Notes: generated from the sequence alone by a model not told the origin. DNA of 64,000 nucleotides from a virus (IMGVR_UViG_2925891887_000001), one strand, 5' to 3'. Shown: positions 18,195-30,107, counted from the stretch's first letter. Numbers and translations: made by a program.

Positions 18195-18899
18195 ATGAGC
18201 AACCTCCAGTTAGAGCATTTTAACGTCACAGGCCATTCCGATTTTCCTTTCAAGTTTACATTGAAAGGTTATGCAGAGGATGCGGTAGGCCAGATCATTA
18301 TTGATAAAGACATCGTTAAGTTTGAGGGGAATTTTGATGAATCCGCGAAAACATTCATAGACTTCGTTGCCAAACGTTGGAGCGAGCAATGGAAAAACCT
18401 GGAAAAGCGCGCCAATGAGTTTGATCGGTTCATGGATGCAATGGATACAGCAAAAGAGGCTCTTGATGCCGGGACTCCGTTAGATCTGGAGTCACTTTTC
18501 AACGGCGAAGTGGCCTCTGCGATGTTCGCCACCATGTTCGCGGGTGAGTTCGTCCGCAGCGGTGCCAAAAACTACCTTGAGCTGGATTACAACGTCCCTG
18601 CAATTGGCGATTTCGTCGTTACCATCCAACGCAAAGAAGGTAAGACGCCAGGTGAACGCGTCGCAGAGCTTGAGGCCGTTGTGGATCAGCGTAACGGAGA
18701 GTGTGACCGTTTGATCAACGAGCTTCATGCACTTCGGGAAGAAAGAATATGTGCGGGTAGCAATACACGTAATGCAGCGGATATCTACTTCCAGTTAGTT
18801 GAGGAATGCCAGATTCCACCAGGTGGCTCTCTTGTCGATTACGTCAGACATTTAATGGCGGAAGTTAACTCCAGCCATAAAGATGGTGAGGTGCGCTGA
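18195..18899 (+). CDS. hypothetical protein (234 aa)
   Basis: ORF with the AGAGAAAACACATG leader. Confidence 0.55.
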   Translation: MSNLQLEHFNVTGHSDFPFKFTLKGYAEDAVGQIIIDKDIVKFEGNFDESAKTFIDFVAKRWSEQWKNLEKRANEFDRFMDAMDTAKEALDAGTPLDLESLFNGEVASAMFATMFAGEFVRSGAKNYLELDYNVPAIGDFVVTIQRKEGKTPGERVAELEAVVDQRNGECDRLINELHALREERICAGSNTRNAADIYFQLVEECQIPPGGSLVDYVRHLMAEVNSSHKDGEVR

Positions 18900-20678: not shown

Positions 20679-20835
20679 CCCGTCTCCTTTATTTTAATTT
20701 GCGCAATTGTCGCCTTGTAGTGTACTCCAGCTACGACATTTAATCATTTATGAGAAATGCTGTTATCACATGGCAGACATAAGGCCATTTTGTTACTATC
20801 AAGCCCCTTTTCACTACAAAGAAGTAATGCCTACT

Positions 20836-22869
20836 ATGACCCAAGTCGCGAAGAAAATTCTGGTGACGTGCGCGCTGCCGTACGCTAACGGCTCAATCCA
20901 CCTCGGCCATATGCTGGAGCACATCCAGGCTGATGTCTGGGTTCGTTACCAGCGAATGCGCGGCCACGAGGTTAATTTCATCTGTGCCGACGATGCCCAC
21001 GGTACGCCGATCATGCTGAAAGCACAGCAGCTTGGTATCACACCGGAGCAGATGATTGGCGAAATGAGTCAGGAACACCAGACTGATTTCGCAGGCTTTA
21101 ACATCAGCTATGACAACTATCACTCGACGCACAGCGAAGAGAACCGTCAGTTGTCTGAGCTTATCTATACTCGCCTGAAAGAGAACGGTTTTATTAAAAA
21201 CCGTACTATCTCTCAGTTGTACGACCCGGAAAAAGGCATGTTCCTGCCGGATCGTTTTGTGAAAGGCACCTGCCCGAAATGTAAATCCCCGGATCAATAC
21301 GGCGATAACTGCGAAGTCTGCGGCGCGACCTACAGCCCGACTGAATTGATCGAGCCGAAATCGGTGGTTTCTGGTGCTACCCCGGTAATGCGTGATTCTG
21401 AACACTTCTTCTTTGATCTGCCCTCTTTCAGCGAAATGTTGCAGGCATGGACCCGCAGCGGTGCGTTGCAGGAGCAGGTGGCAAATAAAATGCAGGAGTG
21501 GTTTGAATCCGGCCTGCAACAGTGGGATATCTCCCGCGACGCGCCATACTTTGGTTTTGAAATTCCGAACGCGCCGGGCAAATATTTCTACGTCTGGCTG
21601 GACGCACCGATTGGCTACATGGGTTCTTTCAAGAATCTGTGCGACAAGCGCGGCGACAGCGTAAGCTTCGATGAATACTGGAAGAAAGACTCCACCGCCG
21701 AGCTGTACCACTTCATCGGTAAAGATATCGTTTACTTCCACAGCCTGTTCTGGCCTGCCATGCTGGAAGGCAGCAACTTCCGCAAGCCGACCAACCTGTT
21801 TGTTCATGGCTATGTGACGGTGAACGGCGCGAAGATGTCCAAGTCTCGCGGCACCTTTATTAAAGCCAGCACCTGGCTGAATCATTTTGACGCTGACAGC
21901 CTGCGTTACTACTACACTGCGAAACTCTCTTCGCGCATTGATGATATCGATCTCAACCTGGAGGATTTCGTTCAGCGCGTGAATGCCGATATCGTGAACA
22001 AAGTGGTTAACCTGGCGTCCCGTAACGCTGGCTTTATCAATAAGCGTTTTGACGGTGTGCTGGCAAGCGAGCTGGCTGACCCGCAGTTGTACAAAACCTT
22101 CACTGATGCCGCTGAAGTGATTGGTGAAGCGTGGGAAAGCCGCGAATTTGGTAAAGCTATCCGTGAAATCATGGCACTGGCTGACCTGGCTAACCGCTAT
22201 GTCGACGAGCAGGCTCCTTGGGTAGTCGCAAAACAGGAAGGTCGCGATGCTGACCTGCAGGCGATTTGCTCAATGGGCATCAACCTGTTCCGCGTGCTGA
22301 TGACTTACCTGAAACCGGTACTGCCGAAACTGACAGAACGTGCGGAAGCATTCCTGAATACGGAACTGACCTGGGATGGCATCCAGCAACCGCTGCTGGG
22401 CCATAAAGTGAATCCGTTCAAAGCACTGTATAACCGTATCGACATGAAACAGGTGGAAGCATTGGTGGAAGCGTCTAAAGAAGAAGTGAAAGCTACTGCC
22501 GCGCCAGTTACTGGCCCGCTGGCAGACGACCCGATTCAGGAAACCATCACCTTTGACGACTTTGCCAAAGTTGACCTGCGCGTGGCACTGATCGAAAACG
22601 CAGAGTTTGTTGAAGGTTCTGACAAACTGCTGCGCCTGACGCTGGATCTCGGCGGTGAAAAACGCAATGTCTTCTCAGGCATCCGTTCTGCTTATCCAGA
22701 CCCACAGGCACTGATTGGTCGTCACACCATTATGGTGGCTAACCTGGCTCCGCGTAAGATGCGCTTCGGCATCTCCGAAGGTATGGTGATGGCTGCTGGC
22801 CCCGGCGGGAAAGATATCTTCCTGTTAAGCCCGGATGCTGGTGCTAAACCTGGCCACCAGGTTAAGTAA
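20836..22869 (+). CDS. metG: methionyl-tRNA synthetase (host chromosomal gene)
   Basis: [25 protein letters not shown] (HLGH), [17 protein letters not shown] zinc knuckle, KMSKS, C-terminal tRNA-binding domain. The listed start at 20707 is an upstream in-frame extension. Confidence 0.95.
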
Positions 22870-22891
22870 TTAAGCAACCTCTGTTCGCAAT

Positions 22892-22916
22892 GCCCGGCAA
22901 CACGCTGGGCATTTTC
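22892..22916 (+). terminator. metG terminator
   Basis: GCCCGGC/GCTGGGC stem (one G-U pair), 5-nt loop, ATTTT tail. Confidence 0.6.
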
Positions 22917-22952
22917 ATATAGACACAATCCCTCCTGATTTACACAAGCCTT

Positions 22953-23017
22953 AAAACAATTTGTTTTCTACCTTTTGTTGATTGAGATAATAAGCCACAT
23001 AAGAAAACAAATTGTTT
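22953..23017 (+). promoter_or_regulatory. promoter cassette with two operator palindromes
   Basis: AAAACAATTTGTTTT (22953-22967, perfect), extended -10 TGAGATAAT (22983-22991), AAACAAATTGTTT (23005-23017). Confidence 0.6.
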
Positions 23018-23030
23018 CGGAGTGGTTGAA

Positions 23031-23330
23031 ATGTTGAACATTACCCAAGCCTACCAGGTGGCATTGATCAGTTCATCTCATACATCAGAGGAAGATGCTC
23101 GCCGATTCATGATCGCAAGCAATGAGCTGGATTGGGTTTCACAAATTGATGGCGGTTGTATTGTCCACGCCGGGTTACAGGATGATGTCTGGAAAGACGA
23201 CTTGCGTCGATATGGTATATCCGAAGGCGCGATTGCTAACATTCAGAAAGTACTTGATGTAGGCTTTGACTCTGTACATTTTGATTGTGGTGCGCCGATC
23301 GTTGAAGGGCTTGAGTGCTGGTGTTGGTAG
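23031..23330 (+). CDS. hypothetical protein (99 aa)
   Basis: ATG 23031 follows GGAGTGG. Confidence 0.5.
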   Translation: MLNITQAYQVALISSSHTSEEDARRFMIASNELDWVSQIDGGCIVHAGLQDDVWKDDLRRYGISEGAIANIQKVLDVGFDSVHFDCGAPIVEGLECWCW

Positions 23331-23461
23331 AGTGTATAAGCGGATCAATGAGTTACGGAAACAGTTAATAATGAGGAGCTTGTAATAAGCTGTATACCCT
23401 AGAAAAGCTAGACTAGGGAATAAAATGACGTGAAACTGGGCGAGACAGTAAATAATTCCGA

Positions 23462-24691
23462 ATGATAATTGAACAAATAACCCCTTGCTCGGAGCTTGGA
23501 ATGACTGATACCGCTTTTTCAAAATCGTTACAAAAAGAAGTCGATCCTGAGCAGTACTTGGCGCTAAAGAATTTAGATGACAGCTCGGTTCATGCTATTG
23601 CCCGTGACGATATCATCTGCCCCATTTGCAAAGTTGGAGGTGGTTCGTTCGTTAGAGCCACTAGGAATGGTGGCTATCACAAGAAGGCGCATTTCAGATT
23701 TACCGGTGAAGATGGTCAAGGCCATCATCCATCATGTGATTTCTATGGAGATAGACTAACATCTGAGGTGAAGCAGCACCTTGTCTCATTCACAAAAGAT
23801 CGAACAAAGTATTCGCAGGTAATACGAAAGCTGGTCTGTGCCGGCATACAGGAAGGGATATTTACTCAAGAAAAAATGTGGCAGATGAGGGAATGGTTCT
23901 TCAATAAGCGAAAGGATTCCACATTTGAAATATGGTTAGAAAGCGAGCATTTAGACTGGCTTTATTATATTAGTGGGTTACGTGATGCATATCTAGCATG
24001 GACAACTCCTGATATTCTACCTTTCGCGCCCATTCAGGTTACTGTGCCTGGTTTTTCTTGGAAGCGTGCGATTGACAAAGAGGTGCTAAGAGTTCACATC
24101 AAGACTCTCCAGCAATTGCGTGAAATTTCAGTCTCACATAGAGACATTGCTGTAATCTTAGAACACATAAACAATAATCGTGACCGCACAATTCTCGATC
24201 CATCGCATTTGGAGGACGAGATAAGTAAGACCTGTAAGCTTACTAGTTTTGTGATGGGCAATTACATTGAGTTTCAGACAAAAACGGTTAGCGACAGAGC
24301 ATACGGGGAAGCTAAGTTTCTGGCATTTGCAGCACTTTTGTTGTTCGTGTCAGATTGGGACCTCAACATTGCTATTGGTAAGTTTTCTAAGATTGCCAGA
24401 GTGAAGGAGGTTGATGACATGCTGGCTGGTAATTTCATTGGTCTTAATCCTTACTTCCGATACGACCTGGCTAATGCAGTGAAGAGATTGCAGGATAACT
24501 GGCCGATTGAATACCAAGAGTTGGAGCATTGGAATGTTGAGAAATCCATGCGTGACGCATATGAAAAGTGGCGTGCGACAGAGCCTGAATTCGCTCCACC
24601 CCTATTGCCAGACTTGTATATTGCCAAACATGAGAAAGAAGTCGCACAAGACGAGCAAGTCAGGCAGTGGATTAAGAACGGGGATGTTTGA
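23462..24691 (+). CDS. hypothetical protein with an N-terminal Cys/His zinc-ribbon-like motif (409 aa)
   Basis: CPICKVGGGSF...HKKAHFRFTGEDGQGHHPSCD. Lower GC than its surroundings. The start is uncertain, with an alternative ATG near 23501 after GGAG. Confidence 0.55.
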   Translation: MIIEQITPCSELGMTDTAFSKSLQKEVDPEQYLALKNLDDSSVHAIARDDIICPICKVGGGSFVRATRNGGYHKKAHFRFTGEDGQGHHPSCDFYGDRLTSEVKQHLVSFTKDRTKYSQVIRKLVCAGIQEGIFTQEKMWQMREWFFNKRKDSTFEIWLESEHLDWLYYISGLRDAYLAWTTPDILPFAPIQVTVPGFSWKRAIDKEVLRVHIKTLQQLREISVSHRDIAVILEHINNNRDRTILDPSHLEDEISKTCKLTSFVMGNYIEFQTKTVSDRAYGEAKFLAFAALLLFVSDWDLNIAIGKFSKIARVKEVDDMLAGNFIGLNPYFRYDLANAVKRLQDNWPIEYQELEHWNVEKSMRDAYEKWRATEPEFAPPLLPDLYIAKHEKEVAQDEQVRQWIKNGDV

Positions 24692-24820
24692 GTGTAATTA
24701 GCTTAATCAATCAGTTGATAATGGCGGTCACAATTTGATTCTTTTCTATAAGAATCCGTTGATCGCCACTACTCTTCTTCCATACCTGCAATCACACCTT
24801 TAAATATCAATAGGTTAACG

Positions 24821-24850
24821 TTGTTTATACCAATAAGAAAACAACTAAAT
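24821..24850 (+). promoter_or_regulatory. promoter cassette (half operator)
   Basis: TTGTTTATACCAATAAGAAAACAACTAAAT. The AAAACAACTAAATAACA part recurs at 25069-25085. Confidence 0.4.
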
Positions 24851-24898
24851 AACAGATCAACGAAACATCAACGCTTTCACCCGATTTGGTCTAAAAAA

Positions 24899-24927
24899 TT
24901 GACGTTTTCACACATCACTTCTTATAC
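24899..24927 (+). promoter_or_regulatory. sigma70-like promoter
   Basis: TTGACG, a 17-nt spacer, then TTATAC. Confidence 0.4.
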
Positions 24928-25673
24928 CCGTAATTCTACGCAGCAGATAGCGCTACAGCGTCCAAATTTCACCACAGACGACTCAACACACTACCAACAA
25001 AAACACACGCTCAAAATCGCTCCCGTTGCGTTACACAACCATATAAACAACTTATTTTCAGGTATAACAAAACAACTAAATAACACACATGCCATTACCC
25101 AAAACAACCAACCTCTTTATGGCAGGCTACCGAAAAGACCCACCTCTTCTCCCCAGGCTACCGGACAACCAACCTAACTTTCACAGGCAATCCGAAAACA
25201 TTCATACGCGCGATACCCACGACACGCCATTACCCAAACAGCGAAGAAACACCAGAATCACTGAAAACCCAACGAAGCCTGTTACCGCAAGGATTCTCTC
25301 AATCCCAAAAGACACGAAACAGAACAATCACGGGAAACGCCATTACCCAATACACGAATAACTACAAAAGCCTTTCACACACTCCAGACAAACAACTCAA
25401 ACACAATAACGAAAGGAATCGCCCACCTGCCATTACTCCATACACGGAGAAGAACAATCACCAAAACGACGAGAACACCCCATAGAAGAACCACCGCAAA
25501 ACGAACGAAACCACATACACCGACAGAGAGAACAACACACCCAATTCACCAACAGAAATAGTCGCCGTATAGAACGTTCTGGAAGGAGTGAGCATTAACG
25601 CCTATAGAGAGGTTGAGACAGATAAAACACAACATGTATAGCGAAGAAGCCAGGTATGTATAAGTGGGGAGGG

Positions 25674-25697
25674 AAGGAGGGGTGTCGCCTCCTTTTT
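25674..25697 (+). terminator. intrinsic terminator
   Basis: AAGGAGG/CCTCCTT stem, 7-nt loop, T5 run. Confidence 0.65.
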
Positions 25698-25760
25698 CGT
25701 ATTTATTCAACTCCTGATTTTATCCCCCGTAACACCCCTACGGTCAGCCTTCGGTCCATA

Positions 25761-25893
25761 CAGGGAAAAGGTTGCATCCCGCTACAGAAACGGCTGGGTT
25801 GCCTTCGGGGAACGGCTGGAGGTTTTCAGGGAAACGGTCGAGTTGCCTGTGTGGATTTCGGGAAAAGGCTCGATGCCGGTTCAGGAACGGTGG
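25761..25893 (+). repeat. direct-repeat (iteron-like) array 1, six copies of the (C)GGGAAA(A/C)GG(C/T)NG type
   Basis: Copies start at 25761, 25785, 25806, 25827, 25859 and 25882, with spacings of 24, 21, 21, 32 and 23 nt. Confidence 0.75.
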
Positions 25894-26204
25894 CGTACCG
25901 GTATAGCGAGAGGGAGAGTTGCGGCTACCCACCTGTAATGTGCGGGAAGAAGAGAGGCGCTCACGTAGGCGGACTTGCTTACCGCTGGATTCCCTCTGAA
26001 TGCCCAGCTACAGCGTAATTGTGCCAGACAGCCAGCGGGTCACAATCGATTTCAGTAGGTTTTTGGGGAGAGGATTACTCTGCCACCAGCCACTTTCGGC
26101 CACTAAATCAGAATAATGTAAAAAGTGCACTCGGTACTGAACCTGAAAACTCACTGCCAAAACCACATTCACCGGAATAAAATCCTTTTTCGCCTGTGCG
26201 TTAT

Positions 26205-26240
26205 TGCGATAATAACACCAACAAGTAAACAACATGTTTA
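26205..26240 (+). promoter_or_regulatory. promoter/operator cassette
   Basis: Extended -10 TGCGATAAT (26205-26213), then TAAACAACATGTTTA (26226-26240). Confidence 0.55.
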
Positions 26241-26271
26241 GACGTTATATAAACGAAGTGAGGATGAAGAG

Positions 26272-26490
26272 ATGATTAAGATGCCTGTGACGGTTGAGGT
26301 GTGGGGCGTGGATTCCCTGGCTGAGTGTCTGGATGCAGTGGGGCCGGAGTTGTACCGCAAGTTGTGGTCGTTCGTCCCGGCAGAAGGGGAACCGCCCAAG
26401 GGGAAGGATATCTGGCACCTGCTGAGTGAAGATGAAAAGCGGGAGCTGGTGGACGCGGTACACAGCGAGTTCCCGGGCGACGAAGATTAA
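26272..26490 (+). CDS. hypothetical protein (72 aa)
   Basis: ORF after GAGGATGAAGAG, followed by a terminator. Confidence 0.5.
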   Translation: MIKMPVTVEVWGVDSLAECLDAVGPELYRKLWSFVPAEGEPPKGKDIWHLLSEDEKRELVDAVHSEFPGDED

Positions 26491-26497
26491 GAGTGAG

Positions 26498-26518
26498 GCC
26501 ACCAGCACGGTGGCTTTT
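26498..26518 (+). terminator. intrinsic terminator
   Basis: GCCACC/GGTGGC stem, 5-nt loop, TTTT tail. Confidence 0.7.
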
Positions 26519-26580
26519 GTCGCTATTAACCTCCGGGCAGCGCAACACCGTAACGATATACTTTGTGGCCGTTTTCTTAC

Positions 26581-26617
26581 TGGTATTGTTTACGCAATTT
26601 AGAAAACAACATGTTTA
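26581..26617 (+). promoter_or_regulatory. promoter/operator cassette
   Basis: TGGTATTGT, then AGAAAACAACATGTTTA. The 57-bp unit 26561-26617 is duplicated at 27045-27101. Confidence 0.55.
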
Positions 26618-26628
26618 AGGATTGCTTT

Positions 26629-26958
26629 ATGTTTACAAATATCGACATCAACCAAATCAAGAAATTAACTCAAAAAGAGTTTGATCAGTTTTATGAGTTA
26701 GAAGGTTGGTCTTCCACTCTGATCAATTCAAGATGGGTGCTGGAGCTGATGACTCGTGATGACGCACCTGCTTTGATGATTTGCGACATGGGTGAAGATG
26801 CTGACTTTATGGATATGAGCGAATTTTGTGTGGACACATACAACCGCAGCCAGAAGTACTACTTCACATGCGATAGCGAAAATGACGTGATTTCTAAGGT
26901 CTATCTTCACCTCGTCCAGCATTGGGACGTTCAGGAGTTTCTTGAAGTATTCGAGTAA
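26629..26958 (+). CDS. hypothetical protein (109 aa)
   Basis: ATG 26629 follows AAGGA. Confidence 0.5.
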   Translation: MFTNIDINQIKKLTQKEFDQFYELEGWSSTLINSRWVLELMTRDDAPALMICDMGEDADFMDMSEFCVDTYNRSQKYYFTCDSENDVISKVYLHLVQHWDVQEFLEVFE

Positions 26959-27064
26959 CCCCAACCAAAGCCAGCATTGCTGGCTTAATTTCTCTATAGA
27001 CGCAGGGAAGAACCTGCATATCGCTCATGCGCCTGATCAATATGCTTTGTAGCCGTTTTCTTAC

Positions 27065-27101
27065 TGGTATTATTTACGCCATTGAGAAAACAAGTTGTTT
27101 A
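27065..27101 (+). promoter_or_regulatory. promoter/operator cassette
   Basis: TGGTATTAT, then GAGAAAACAAGTTGTTTA. Confidence 0.55.
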
Positions 27102-27111
27102 CGGAGTTGTA

Positions 27112-27423
27112 ATGAAAAAATCATTGGTTCTTGGTCTGGACAAAGACCAGAAGAGAAAAGAGAAGCCTGCGCTGGTTGCTCAATTAACTTTGCTGGACAT
27201 CGTTGCCAATGGGACCTCTATTCGTCTGTTCCGTGAAACAGCGGTGTCTTTCGATAAAAACACCTTTACTCGTTATGTAATGAATGTTCGTCGCCAGCGT
27301 GGAAAAGGCTGGGTGGCATTTCAAAGAATGTGGCCGGAACATCAGCTCGAACTGGCTTTGATGGAAGTTAACCGCGTGGCCCAGCAAGAGATTCAGAGAG
27401 CATCAGTGATGGCAATAGCCTGA
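27112..27423 (+). CDS. hypothetical basic protein (103 aa)
   Basis: ATG 27112 follows ACGGAG. Confidence 0.5.
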   Translation: MKKSLVLGLDKDQKRKEKPALVAQLTLLDIVANGTSIRLFRETAVSFDKNTFTRYVMNVRRQRGKGWVAFQRMWPEHQLELALMEVNRVAQQEIQRASVMAIA

Positions 27424-27457
27424 TAATGTGCAAGTGGCAATTAGTCGACAGTACGAC

Positions 27458-27485
27458 AGCCCCGCCATCCTTACGGGGCTTTTTT
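27458..27485 (+). terminator. intrinsic terminator
   Basis: AGCCCCG/CGGGGCT stem, 9-nt loop, T5 run. Confidence 0.8.
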
Positions 27486-27490
27486 GTATT

Positions 27491-27506
27491 GTAAGTACAT
27501 ACTTAC
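27491..27506. repeat. GTAAGTA-type palindrome (GTAAGTACATACTTAC, perfect arms)
   Basis: Read directly. Lies 44 nt upstream of ATG 27550. Confidence 0.85.
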
Positions 27507-27549
27507 GATCATAGAATAGAAAAATAACCAATACACTACGGAGAGTGAA

Positions 27550-27945
27550 ATGACCGTTAAACGCGAAAAACTGACAGTTGATGTTTACTATGCCTCTGAA
27601 ACCGCCGAAGGTAAGAATGTGGCAAAAATCACCGTTGTTACGTACAACACCGAAACTGGTGCCGAAGTACAGGCCAGTACGATCGTGCGTAAAGGTGATG
27701 CCTCCGGCGGCGAGTACGCGACTCAATACCAGTCCATTCTCGATGCAACTGACCCGCTGCTGCTGAAAATCGAGAACTACTTCCGCCAGGTTGATGAAGA
27801 GGTGTTTGAAACCATGATGAATATGGTTAACACCGTATTCGCCTCCAGCCTGAATACCAACACTACCTGGATTGGTCAGTACGGCCTGCGCATTACCTCT
27901 GGCATTCCTGCCGACACCTTAATCCCTGAAAGCGTATTCGCTTAA
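27550..27945 (+). CDS. hypothetical protein (131 aa)
   Basis: ORF after ACGGAGAG. Confidence 0.55.
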   Translation: MTVKREKLTVDVYYASETAEGKNVAKITVVTYNTETGAEVQASTIVRKGDASGGEYATQYQSILDATDPLLLKIENYFRQVDEEVFETMMNMVNTVFASSLNTNTTWIGQYGLRITSGIPADTLIPESVFA

Positions 27946-27953
27946 TCCTCTTT

Positions 27954-27979
27954 AAATGGCGCGTAAACCGCGCCATTTT
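27954..27979 (+). terminator. intrinsic terminator
   Basis: AAATGGCGCG/CGCGCCATTT stem, 5-nt loop. Confidence 0.65.
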
Positions 27980-27991
27980 ATTAAGCCCGAT

Positions 27992-28028
27992 AACAATTTG
28001 TTTTCTGCCTTATCTGATTTGTGAAAAT
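27992..28028 (+). promoter_or_regulatory. promoter cassette with upstream operator
   Basis: AACAATTTGTTTT (27992-28004), then TGTGAAAAT (28020-28028). Confidence 0.5.
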
Positions 28029-28062
28029 GATTTCACTGAAGCAAGTTAATAAGGAAACCATC

Positions 28063-28437
28063 ATGGGACTTGATATCTATATCGAGACACAGCCTAAAAA
28101 CGATCTGAATAACGAGGCATCCAGAAAGCAGGTTGCTTACTTCCGTAAGTTCAATGCGCTCGTTGGGTGGATGGAGCGCAACGTAGGTGAAGTCGAAAAT
28201 TGTGAGCTTTTAGAATTAACGATGAATGACATTTGTTTTCTGAAGGCTCATTTGATGCACATAAACGAAAGTAATTGCGAAGAGTACTTGCCTACCCGGG
28301 AAGGTTTTTTCTTCGGCAGTCAGGAGTACGATGAAGGTTACTGGCATGATGTGGGGCAGTTGAAAGAGCTTGTGGAAGATCTGATTAAGAACCACGACTT
28401 TCACAATAACAGACTGACCTTCTGCGCCTGGTGGTAA
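28063..28437 (+). CDS. hypothetical protein (124 aa)
   Basis: ATG 28063 follows AAGGAAACC. Confidence 0.5.
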   Translation: MGLDIYIETQPKNDLNNEASRKQVAYFRKFNALVGWMERNVGEVENCELLELTMNDICFLKAHLMHINESNCEEYLPTREGFFFGSQEYDEGYWHDVGQLKELVEDLIKNHDFHNNRLTFCAWW

Positions 28438-28439
28438 AT

Positions 28440-28583
28440 ATGGGCGATTTCAAGAAACGCCTGAAGGAAAGAGCCGAGATGGTCAGAAAGCAAAACGCCT
28501 CTTCTGTCATCAGATACGCAAGGCAGTTTAGTCGCAACAACAAATCAGTTGAGGAAAAGATCCTTAGCGTAATCGTGCGATAA
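28440..28583 (+). CDS. small basic protein (47 aa), below the ORF-track cutoff
   Basis: ATG lies 3 nt after the upstream stop. Translates to MGDFKKRLKERAEMVRKQNASSVIRYARQFSRNNKSVEEKILSVIVR. A hairpin follows at 28589-28612. Confidence 0.35.
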   Translation: MGDFKKRLKERAEMVRKQNASSVIRYARQFSRNNKSVEEKILSVIVR

Positions 28584-28734
28584 TTATTAAGGCCATCAGC
28601 ATTGGTGGCCTTAAATGACCATCTTGTTTCCCGCAGGCTAAAAACACCAACCTCTTACCTCCAGGCAACCGACAAACCCACCTGTTCCCGTCCGGCTACC
28701 GCAACTTTCCACTTTGACGCCTTATTCGTACAAC

Positions 28735-28766
28735 GATAATTAACACCAACAAGAAAACAATTTGTT
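28735..28766 (+). promoter_or_regulatory. promoter/operator cassette
   Basis: GATAAT (28735-28740), with TTGACG at 28714-28719. Then AAAACAATTTGTT (28754-28766). Confidence 0.55.
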
Positions 28767-28787
28767 ATTTACGATAAGGAATTAATC

Positions 28788-29270
28788 ATGAATTTTATCG
28801 CTACTGTAAACGCACCCGCACATGGCAATATCGCTGTAACGTTCTCTGACATTGAAAAACGAGTACTTGGTGCATGGCGCGACAATGAGACGGTAGAACT
28901 GTCAGCACAAGAAAAATGCATTATTGCACGCGACATCATTGGCAATCGTCGTTACTCGCGGGTATTTGAGAAAGCGTATGTGGTAAATTCTGGATTCGGA
29001 ACGTTCGTCTTTCCGGTGCGCTCCGGGCGATTCTGCCAGTCCAAGCTGATTGAGTTCGCTACGCAGATTTCTTTCTGGATTAAAACTCAATCGTCGTTCA
29101 AATTTTCCGACGATGAAGCAGTATCGCAGGGGATGCGGATCGCCAACAATGCAATTAAATGCAAAAACATTACGTATACCGCTGGCGTTGATACATGGAA
29201 ACTGTTTTGCGCTAACTTTATGCTGAATGTATACGCAAGCAACCGCATCCACATCCTTGATGGCGTGTAA
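28788..29270 (+). CDS. hypothetical protein (160 aa)
   Basis: ORF after TAAGGAAT. Confidence 0.55.
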   Translation: MNFIATVNAPAHGNIAVTFSDIEKRVLGAWRDNETVELSAQEKCIIARDIIGNRRYSRVFEKAYVVNSGFGTFVFPVRSGRFCQSKLIEFATQISFWIKTQSSFKFSDDEAVSQGMRIANNAIKCKNITYTAGVDTWKLFCANFMLNVYASNRIHILDGV

Positions 29271-29276
29271 CTGAGA

Positions 29277-29300
29277 AGAGGGCCAGAAACGGCCCTTTCT
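29277..29300 (+). terminator. intrinsic terminator
   Basis: AGAGGGCC/GGCCCTTT stem. The loop itself contains an iteron-like CAGAAACGG. Confidence 0.55.
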
Positions 29301-29438
29301 CTATAGCCACCAGCTGCCGCAGGGAAATTTTCAGAAACGGCGAGGAACGTATTCATGAGCCGACGGGGAACGGCCAGGATTTTTTCGGGAAACGGCTGCA
29401 TTTGCCTTTGTGTAGAAAAAACATCGGGAAGCTGGTGG
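29284..29438 (+). repeat. direct-repeat (iteron-like) array 2, same motif family as 25761-25893
   Basis: Copies at 29284, 29320, 29332, 29342, 29364 (CGGGGAACGGCCAGG), 29386 (CGGGAAACGGCTGC) and 29425. Three of them are spaced by exactly 22 nt. Confidence 0.7.
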
Positions 29439-29796
29439 AATCCAACCAGCGGTTGTCGGACAGGTGAGCGGGGAAAATTATGATGACTTTCGTCACCTGA
29501 GACATCCAGATTTCTTTCGTAGCATAATCACATACGTGATTAAGTGGTGTGATTATGTGAAAAATCACGCGCACATAATACGCGAGCGGATACGGAACAA
29601 AACAAAATGCCGATCCGCGCCGACAAATAAACGCGGATCATAAAGCAAGACTAAAAGCCAATGATTAACTATGCGCTATAACGCGTTTTAAGCGCGTTAA
29701 TGTGTTAAGTAATGGGTATGTACTGGCAAGGATATAAAAGCGCGTCTATGGCGTTATTTTGGCGCTTATTTTTATGTTGTTGGAGTGAGTTAAAGA

Positions 29797-29826
29797 CAAT
29801 AAAAAACGCGCCATCAATGGCGCGTT
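29797..29826 (-). terminator. intrinsic terminator of the minus-strand island operon
   Basis: AACGCGCCAT/ATGGCGCGTT 10-bp stem, followed on the minus strand by T6. Confidence 0.75.
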
Positions 29827-29847
29827 ATTGTGGAAGTATTGGAAACG

Positions 29848-29871
29848 AAAAAAGCGCCCATAGTGGGCGCT
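29848..29871 (-). terminator. intrinsic terminator (first of a tandem pair)
   Basis: AGCGCCCA/TGGGCGCT stem with T5 on the minus strand. The same hairpin family occurs at 30349-30369. Confidence 0.75.
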
Positions 29872-29876
29872 CGATT

Positions 29877-30107
29877 TTATTTGTGTAAACTGATTTTAAA
29901 TCCCATTTCTACGAACGCTTTTAACATTAAAAATATATCAGCGTCGTTCACGTCTGCTTTTTTTCGCTCCTGGTCGCTCAATAAGTCAATTTTGCGCGTC
30001 GTTTCATCTATAAGCTCGACTACACGCCCAGCGTAACCAGCGATCCCAGCGATGCGATTAACATAATATTCATTATGGACGTTAACGCCAGCGATAAGAA
30101 CAAACAT
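29877..30107 (-). CDS. hypothetical protein (76 aa)
   Basis: ORF in the AT-rich island with AAGGAG upstream on the minus strand. Confidence 0.45.
   Translation of the reverse strand: MFVLIAGVNVHNEYYVNRIAGIAGYAGRVVELIDETTRKIDLLSDQERKKADVNDADIFLMLKAFVEMGFKISLHK

Follow-up and report, generated by a model that had tools for sequence, protein, structure and literature searches.

We asked what purpose is served by a ~1.5-kb stretch of DNA in which no gene is annotated and which recurs at the same position across SSU5-group phage-plasmids. The window, by which we mean the whole 64,000-nt stretch of viral DNA analyzed here (IMGVR_UViG_2925891887_000001), was assigned to this group by sequence matches: it shares 98% identity with the E. 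coli plasmid pSTEC409_1, 92–97% with the Escherichia phages CMS-2020a, Cyrano (~96%), and PhiR41_1, and ~70% with Salmonella phage SSU5 and with plasmids of Klebsiella, Enterobacter, Citrobacter, and Cronobacter. The stretch is gene-free in the RefSeq annotation of every relative examined, and the C/A-rich tract that it holds lies, in all relatives, with variable cargo genes on one side and, on the other, conserved small early genes clustered on the plus strand. Searches located the tract in 837 plasmids of PLSDB; among 5426 complete E. coli genomes, 236 (~4%) carry it, always on a plasmid and in no case annotated. The phage-plasmids that bear it form a common family in E. coli, Klebsiella, and Salmonella, and it is kept in the more distant Kluyvera and Buttiauxella. 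Yersinia pMT1 has no tract, and the entire small-gene module is gone from that plasmid too, so that its absence there is uninformative about a specific loss. A literature search returned no description of the element. We conclude that SSU5-group phage-plasmids carry the tract as a conserved, orphan non-coding module, located at the junction of cargo and early genes.

The cargo upstream of this junction differs among relatives: the window has a methionyl-tRNA synthetase gene and a gene for a 409-aa protein, Klebsiella has a type I restriction system, and Salmonella and Enterobacter have lysozyme-inhibitor and ydfZ genes. The adjoining upstream genes in the Klebsiella relatives lie on the opposite strand. 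Homology among relatives starts abruptly at an inverted repeat at 24714–24770, preceded by lineage-specific cargo (24692–24714; loci L001–L009), indicating that the element flanks a cargo hotspot. In the alignments, this left boundary block consists of an invariant plus-strand inverted repeat, GGCGGTCA...TGATCGCC, that encloses an inner hairpin, with a fold of approximately −17 to −21 kcal/mol; because the stem is invariant, covariation is uninformative there. The hairpin at this boundary could serve in recombination or in termination. As a separate observation, the synthetase carried as cargo (20707–22869) is full-length, with class I catalytic, anticodon-binding, and tRNA-binding domains, and its gene shows low expression in Cyrano lysogens.

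The composition of the tract is unique within the window. On the plus strand, its core (24940–25560) has base fractions of 0.41 A, 0.33 C, 0.12–0.13 G, and 0.14 T, amounting to 74% A+C versus 49.5 ± 2.6%. The best 600-nt window, starting at 24955, reaches an A+C fraction of 0.742 (versus 0.495 ± 0.026), the maximum elsewhere in the 64 kb is 0.593, and no CA-rich run besides the tract reaches 250 nt. A hand count made for the original prediction, 7 T and 17 G in 25441–25560, proved exact on recounting (59 A, 37 C, 17 G, 7 T). Windows of 78 nt with (C+1)/(G+1) ≥ 3 tile 24947–25553 almost continuously, the C/G ratio is 1.8–2.7 across all lineages, and the bias opposes the plus-strand G>C skew of the whole 110.9-kb plasmid.

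Conservation of the tract is comparable to that of first codon positions: identity to SSU5 is 69% over 624 aligned columns, whereas four-fold degenerate sites in two flanking genes are saturated at 34% and 37%. The A+C content is 67–74% in all lineages and 65% at variable columns; the commonest difference between lineages in the tract is A<->C (25–33%), and the rarest is G<->T. On the evidence of these alignments, the base composition is itself under selection, and a constraint on composition that is specific to one strand points to a signal read in single-stranded form, most simply as RNA. The original prediction had allowed that relatives might lack the skew and the repeated motif; both the C/A skew and the GCCATTACYC units described below are kept in them. 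It had also seen no credible ORF in what it took for a putative non-coding transcript, and the lack of a credible ORF held. ORFs of 118 aa (TTG start) and 90 aa (ATG start) are present in the tract region, and the frame, start, and extent of the ORF vary in each of 11 lineages; three-base (codon) periodicity is absent from the tract.

Since the plus strand is nearly devoid of G and T, any plus-strand transcript would be untranslated and unable to fold. Of all 150-nt windows in the 64 kb, the seven with the least structure fall in the tract (MFE −7 to −13 versus −37.6 ± 7.7 kcal/mol), and a consensus fold of 11 lineages gave 45 pairs in 890 columns with no covariation. The covariation check proposed with the original prediction thus came out negative, for an element that is conserved. 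Within the consensus of the tract RNA, only a polypurine/polypyrimidine hairpin at the 3′ end is kept. A terminator scan located this terminator-like hairpin on the plus strand at 25671–25697 (~−19 kcal/mol), with a U-rich tail in this lineage, at the place where an intrinsic terminator had been proposed (25674–25697); it is retained in all lineages with varied sequence, and SSU5-type relatives lack the U-tract. Polypurine/polypyrimidine pairing is promiscuous, and a candidate long-range helix closing the tract (25109–25155 with 25604–25681) was rejected, being lost in the consensus fold and showing no covariation. The adjacent G-rich region (25698–25965) gave no sign of a structured RNA (consensus −12.8 kcal/mol, covariation term unfavorable), and Rfam covariance models, CsrB included, produced no match to the element (22000–30000 scanned, none within 24600–26300 at E ≤ 1). 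Elsewhere in the window, sub-threshold Rfam matches on both strands (Hrs1, suhB/mmgR, and isrK; E = 0.12–0.81, scores far under the gathering cutoffs) fall on one ~80-nt spot at 29791–29875, possibly a terminator or a small structured RNA.

Motif enrichment was tested against dinucleotide shuffles in four lineages. GGA, the CsrA motif, occurs 4–10 times per tract, which is not above shuffles, and not in hairpins; ACA (MazF) is not enriched, and RNase E-type sites are slightly depleted (z −1.2 to −1.8). Together with the Hfq-related motifs considered below, no protein-specific RNA motif was enriched, leaving the composition as the signal.

Expression values were taken from the S1 Table of PMC9928086, given as log2(fpkm+5) for ten lysogen samples, none of them from the lytic cycle: two from LB and eight from culture medium and macrophage infection. 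CYRAN_103 (Cyrano, OV696614.1, 94381–94737) corresponds to 24821–25177 of the window, the first 357 nt of the element. It stands at 2.32, that is, zero reads, in both LB samples and at 2.69–4.27 in the other eight, ranging from zero to ~14 fpkm across the ten (PMC9928086). CYRAN_102, directly upstream, lies at 5.6–9.2, CYRAN_104, in the G-rich region, at 2.6–4.7, and CYRAN_105, the first downstream gene, rises up to 7.5–7.8 in macrophages (PMC9928086). High values for CYRAN_102 and low values for CYRAN_103 and CYRAN_104 indicate that upstream transcription does not cross the element and that no abundant stable RNA derives from it in lysogens. An abundant sponge RNA is not supported for the lysogenic state: CYRAN_103 does not exceed 4.27 in ten samples, and the lack of a stable or abundant transcript is an outcome that the original prediction itself had named as refuting. 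In Cyrano, the reads have fallen to their full extent by the start of the element. The expression values fit termination followed by decay and also termination before the tract.

Rho recognizes its substrates by composition, namely C-rich, G-poor, unstructured, and untranslated RNA. A rut site is C-rich and G-poor over at least ~80 nt; the tract has 0.33 C and 0.12–0.13 G over 600 nt, and its plus-strand RNA would be both unstructured and untranslated, so that the rut-type composition noted originally is upheld by base counts and folding. Our preferred reading, which we hold tentatively and which may well prove wrong, is that the tract acts in cis as a Rho-loading insulator, separating cargo from early genes by a polar stop of transcription, with repeated motifs that this reading leaves unexplained. 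RNA polymerase would arrive from the cargo genes or initiate at promoter-like modules within the element; Rho would load on the untranslated, unfolded plus-strand RNA and release polymerase within the tract, and the unprotected RNA would then be degraded. The conserved proximal hairpin and the distal hairpin/terminator would bound the unit, and a phage factor bound at the GCCATTACYC units or the 31-nt repeats may modulate it.

Several observations are consistent with a Rho-loading insulator: the gene-free position between variable cargo and the small-gene cluster in all relatives, the rut-like composition over 24947–25553, the least-structured windows of the 64 kb without covariation, the lack of a conserved ORF, a selected composition that runs against the plasmid-wide skew, the 69% identity to SSU5 against 34–37% at four-fold sites, the lack of any enriched RNA–protein motif, and upstream transcription that stops short of crossing the element in Cyrano (PMC9928086). 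Other features fit it poorly. Its 600 nt far exceed what a rut site needs, U is depleted as strongly as G although Rho binding does not require this, and recognition by composition alone cannot explain the 69% identity, the most conserved block (25421–25480, ~93%), or the positionally conserved repeats. Moreover, the promoter-like modules face into the tract; in Klebsiella, the upstream genes point away and leave nothing to stop, yet the tract is retained; and, given where the Cyrano reads drop, the proximal hairpin or another terminator could suffice without the tract.

Two of the promoter-like modules share a box with neighboring small genes. This near-palindromic box, GAAAACAACnTGTTTA, has 10 matches versus 0.12 expected (plus strand: 4760, 14979, 15708, 16422, 26225, 26602, 27086, and 28750; minus strand: 19345 and 39211), mostly 10–35 nt 5′ of the start codons of small plus-strand genes and often preceded by GATAAT..ACACCAACAA. 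The box is probably a shared operator or 5′-leader element of one regulon. Inside the element it occurs as half-sites only, both on the plus strand: one, GAAAACAACTAAATAA, in promoter-proximal module A (24818–24854), which is 95% identical to a copy at 25064–25085, and a second in module C (25044–25085). Promoters had been proposed at 24821–24850 and 25044–25085, and both places do resemble the promoter-proximal module of neighboring genes; however, a scan for the sigma-70 consensus found no promoter at 24821–25085. The same scan bears on the third proposed promoter, a −35-like TTGACG with TTATACC on the plus strand (24899–24928): its hexamers are conserved in the alignment, including TTGACG at 24899, and its spacer is variable, but the partner hexamer (TTATAC/TATACC) lacks the canonical final T and is not a canonical sigma-70 match. 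The core of this element, GCCATCTCTTATACCC, resembles the GCCATTACYC repeat unit.

Repeats of several families occupy the element. GTTGAY/RTCAACG hexamers in alternating orientation lie at 24714, 24758, 24856, and 24867, with TTGACG at 24899; the cluster (24714–24904) is conserved in all lineages, SSU5-type relatives add a sixth, inverted copy, and by sequence it resembles a region dense in protein-binding or regulatory sites. The repeat coordinates first reported were exact (GCCATTACCC at 25091, 25226, and 25339; variant GCCATTACTC(C) at 25429). They mark four positionally conserved plus-strand units, GCCATTACYC(M)ATACAC..., spanning 25091–25457, within which the most conserved block lies. 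GCCATTACYC has 5 matches in the window versus 0.21 expected, and SSU5-type relatives carry a fifth unit. The second reported motif was also recovered, as CAGGCTACCG(A/G)A at 25123 and 25154 with a variant at 25184 and a further array at 28632–28705. It belongs to three plus-strand direct repeats of 31 nt, of the CAGGCTACCGAAAAGACCCACCTCTTCTCCC type (25099–25190), whose copy number varies among relatives: the IMG/VR contigs L012 and L037 carry an extra unit at the position of 25122–25160. This unit was gained independently in E. coli-type and Klebsiella-type relatives, pointing to ongoing unit duplication. The further array comprises three plus-strand 31-nt copies, CAGGC(T/A)A(C/A)CG...ACCNACCT, just 5′ of the TTGACG promoter-like element of the gene at 28788–29270; the order within 28590–28760 is a hairpin (28590–28618), the three repeats, and TTGACG-N17-TAATTA with a box, followed by the gene, and of the whole repeat system, Yersinia pestis pMT1 keeps this segment alone. 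Outside the tract, six plus-strand G-rich direct repeats, C(A/G)G(G)(G/A)AA(A/C)GG, lie at 25761–25890 with iteron-like spacing of 21–31 bp; they are conserved across genera and do not match Rep iterons. The gene-free gap further contains a perfect minus-strand Chi site (GCTGGTGG, 26084–26091), kept in E. coli- and Citrobacter-type relatives, at 7/8 in Klebsiella, and absent in SSU5; a synergy between Chi and RecA loading was discarded because the geometry is wrong.

These repeats raise the possibility, on balance doubtful, that the element acts in cis at the DNA level, its repeats (the GCCATTACYC units, the 31-nt repeats, the GTTGAY/RTCAACG cluster, and the adjacent 21–31-bp G-rich repeats) binding phage proteins to form a regulatory nucleoprotein region or an SSU5-type lytic origin. 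Such a role would suit the presence of direct and inverted repeats of several families, conserved in position, a 31-nt period equal to three helical turns, the iteron-like spacing of the G-rich array, and a variable 31-nt copy number as in iteron or centromere arrays, as well as the recurrence of the 31-nt repeats 5′ of another promoter-like element and their persistence in pMT1. The region is transcriptionally silent in lysogens (PMC9928086). Genes for a replisome of its own, a UvsW-like helicase, and RNase H are present on the plasmid, for which no lytic origin is known. However, binding to duplex DNA gives no reason why 600 bp should stay strand-asymmetric even at variable columns; the element has no initiator gene beside it, the neighboring genes matching only families of unknown function in Pfam and PHROGs scans and the upstream gene being unconserved; and the cumulative GC skew of the plasmid is monotonic, with no extremum at the element. 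The repeats are also unlike the Rep iterons and distant from the rep and par genes. The iterons of the plasmid origin, 12 copies of the 18-nt TYACCGCTGACAGCATAC, lie beside a RepB-family initiator gene at 18238–18772 of L074 (pSTEC409_1); in this 98%-identical plasmid, the rep gene is 32 kb and the ParA-like ATPase gene ~45 kb from the element. Because the iterons are unrelated and these genes far away, a simple incompatibility or centromere role, the alternative offered originally, is unlikely. A titration site for Rep iterons was rejected since the element's motifs have no similarity to TYACCGCTGACAGCATAC, and P1-type parS or pac boxes were dropped as not conserved.

The same promoter-like modules could instead produce RNA in the lytic phase. 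In this unlikely scenario, they would fire after induction to make a long single-stranded, RNase E-poor RNA that titrates Rho, another ssRNA-binding protein, or a nuclease in trans; the 3′ hairpin would protect the RNA, and read-through of long co-oriented operons would be favored. Removal of both G and U leaves structure wholly lacking and RNase E-type sites few, the 3′ hairpin is conserved, and nearly all genes of the phage-plasmid lie on one strand. Rho, however, translocates off RNA, making it a poor target for stoichiometric sponging; the promoters are non-canonical, and the literature search gave no precedent. The promoter-proximal box is common to neighboring inducible genes, and several genes with box GAAAACAACnTGTTTA rise together in macrophage samples, with CYRAN_103 rising slightly in parallel (PMC9928086); still, no abundant RNA appears in the ten lysogen samples, none of which is lytic-cycle (PMC9928086). 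That the tract RNA is a structure-free lytic-phase decoy of Rho or another host ssRNA-binding factor, and as such the first natural RNA antagonist of Rho, is a long shot that we rate lower still.

We consider it very improbable that the element is an Hfq-dependent sponge, whether CrcZ-like, as in the original prediction, or an anti-sRNA mimic that traps the G/U-rich seed of GcvB as the prophage-encoded AgvB does. The tract is C/A-rich like GcvB targets, and its duplexes with GcvB R1 are on average slightly more stable than those of the window (−16.9 versus −13.6 kcal/mol); this is less than 1 SD better than average, and the best duplexes lie elsewhere. In the four lineages, the Hfq/Crc motifs (ARN)n, in its x3 and x4 forms, and AANAANAA do not exceed shuffles (0–1 (ARN)x4 and two AANAANAA per tract), which speaks against the CrcZ-type idea. 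CACAAC, found in GcvB targets, is not enriched in them either (0–1 per tract). No Rfam family matches, and lysogens hold no abundant RNA (PMC9928086). As a separate result, antisense complementarity to targets in the window is at most 12 nt, a chance level.

Least credible of all, to the point of being nearly dismissed, is a degenerate or unrecognized gene for a Pro/Thr/Asn/Gln-rich protein, as annotated in two phage records, Cyrano (CYRAN_103) and PhiR41_1: plus-strand stretches of 93–211 codons are stop-free in the lineages, but only because T and G are rare, while frame, start codon, and extent vary by lineage, indels are not multiples of three, codon periodicity is absent, PGAP makes no call here in 236 E. 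coli genomes, and Pfam gives no match.

SSU5-group phage-plasmids are common in clinical Enterobacteriaceae, and resistance or toxin cargo adjoins the tract junction. An unannotated 1-kb element that is constrained like first codon positions and whose composition is selected points to a function nobody has described. If the element is a Rho-loading insulator, it would explain how variable cargo can be expressed beside early phage genes without disturbing lysogeny, and it would supply a ready-made, portable Rho-dependent stop. If it is a lytic decoy RNA or a lytic origin, the regulation or replication of this phage family would be opened to experiment; a Rho decoy in particular would provide for read-through of long co-oriented operons in 100-kb phage-plasmids after induction.

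Comparison with known systems sets these possibilities in context. Like the UvsW-controlled R-loop origins oriF and oriG of T4, the element has promoter-like elements facing an untranslated region in a genome with genes for a UvsW-like helicase and RNase H; RNA from R-loop-prone regions is G-rich, however, whereas the tract RNA would be G-poor, and an R-loop origin was rejected on this ground. With P1 incA iterons, the lambda origin, and P4 ori/crr it shares helically phased direct repeats in a gene-free region, and the adjacent G-rich repeats are iteron-spaced, but the plasmid's own iterons are unmatched, no initiator gene is adjacent, and the 600-bp asymmetry has no counterpart there. The GcvB sponges AgvB and SroC are likewise encoded by mobile elements, C/A-rich, and could pair with a G/U-rich sRNA seed; the tract differs in having no enriched CACAACA-type sites and no outstanding GcvB duplex and in being ten times longer. 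CrcZ and CrcY (Hfq/Crc) and CsrB and RsmZ (CsrA), non-coding RNAs whose repeated single-stranded motifs titrate a global RNA-binding protein, embody the original idea, from which the tract departs in that neither AANAANAA/ARN nor hairpin-loop GGA is enriched, no abundant RNA is present in lysogens, and Rfam gives no match. A lambda-type nut site was set aside because the U-rich half is missing from the boxA-like CGCTCA. Rut sites and Rho-dependent terminators such as lambda tR1 and trp t′ differ from the tract in length (~80–100 nt versus ~600 nt), and the tract additionally shows depletion of U, sequence-level conservation, internal repeats, and promoter-like modules. Nonetheless, these terminators, like the tract, present untranslated, C-rich, G-poor, unstructured RNA 3′ of expressed genes; and in the tract, as in them, upstream transcription does not cross, and a stable upstream hairpin offers a possible stop for 3′-end trimming.
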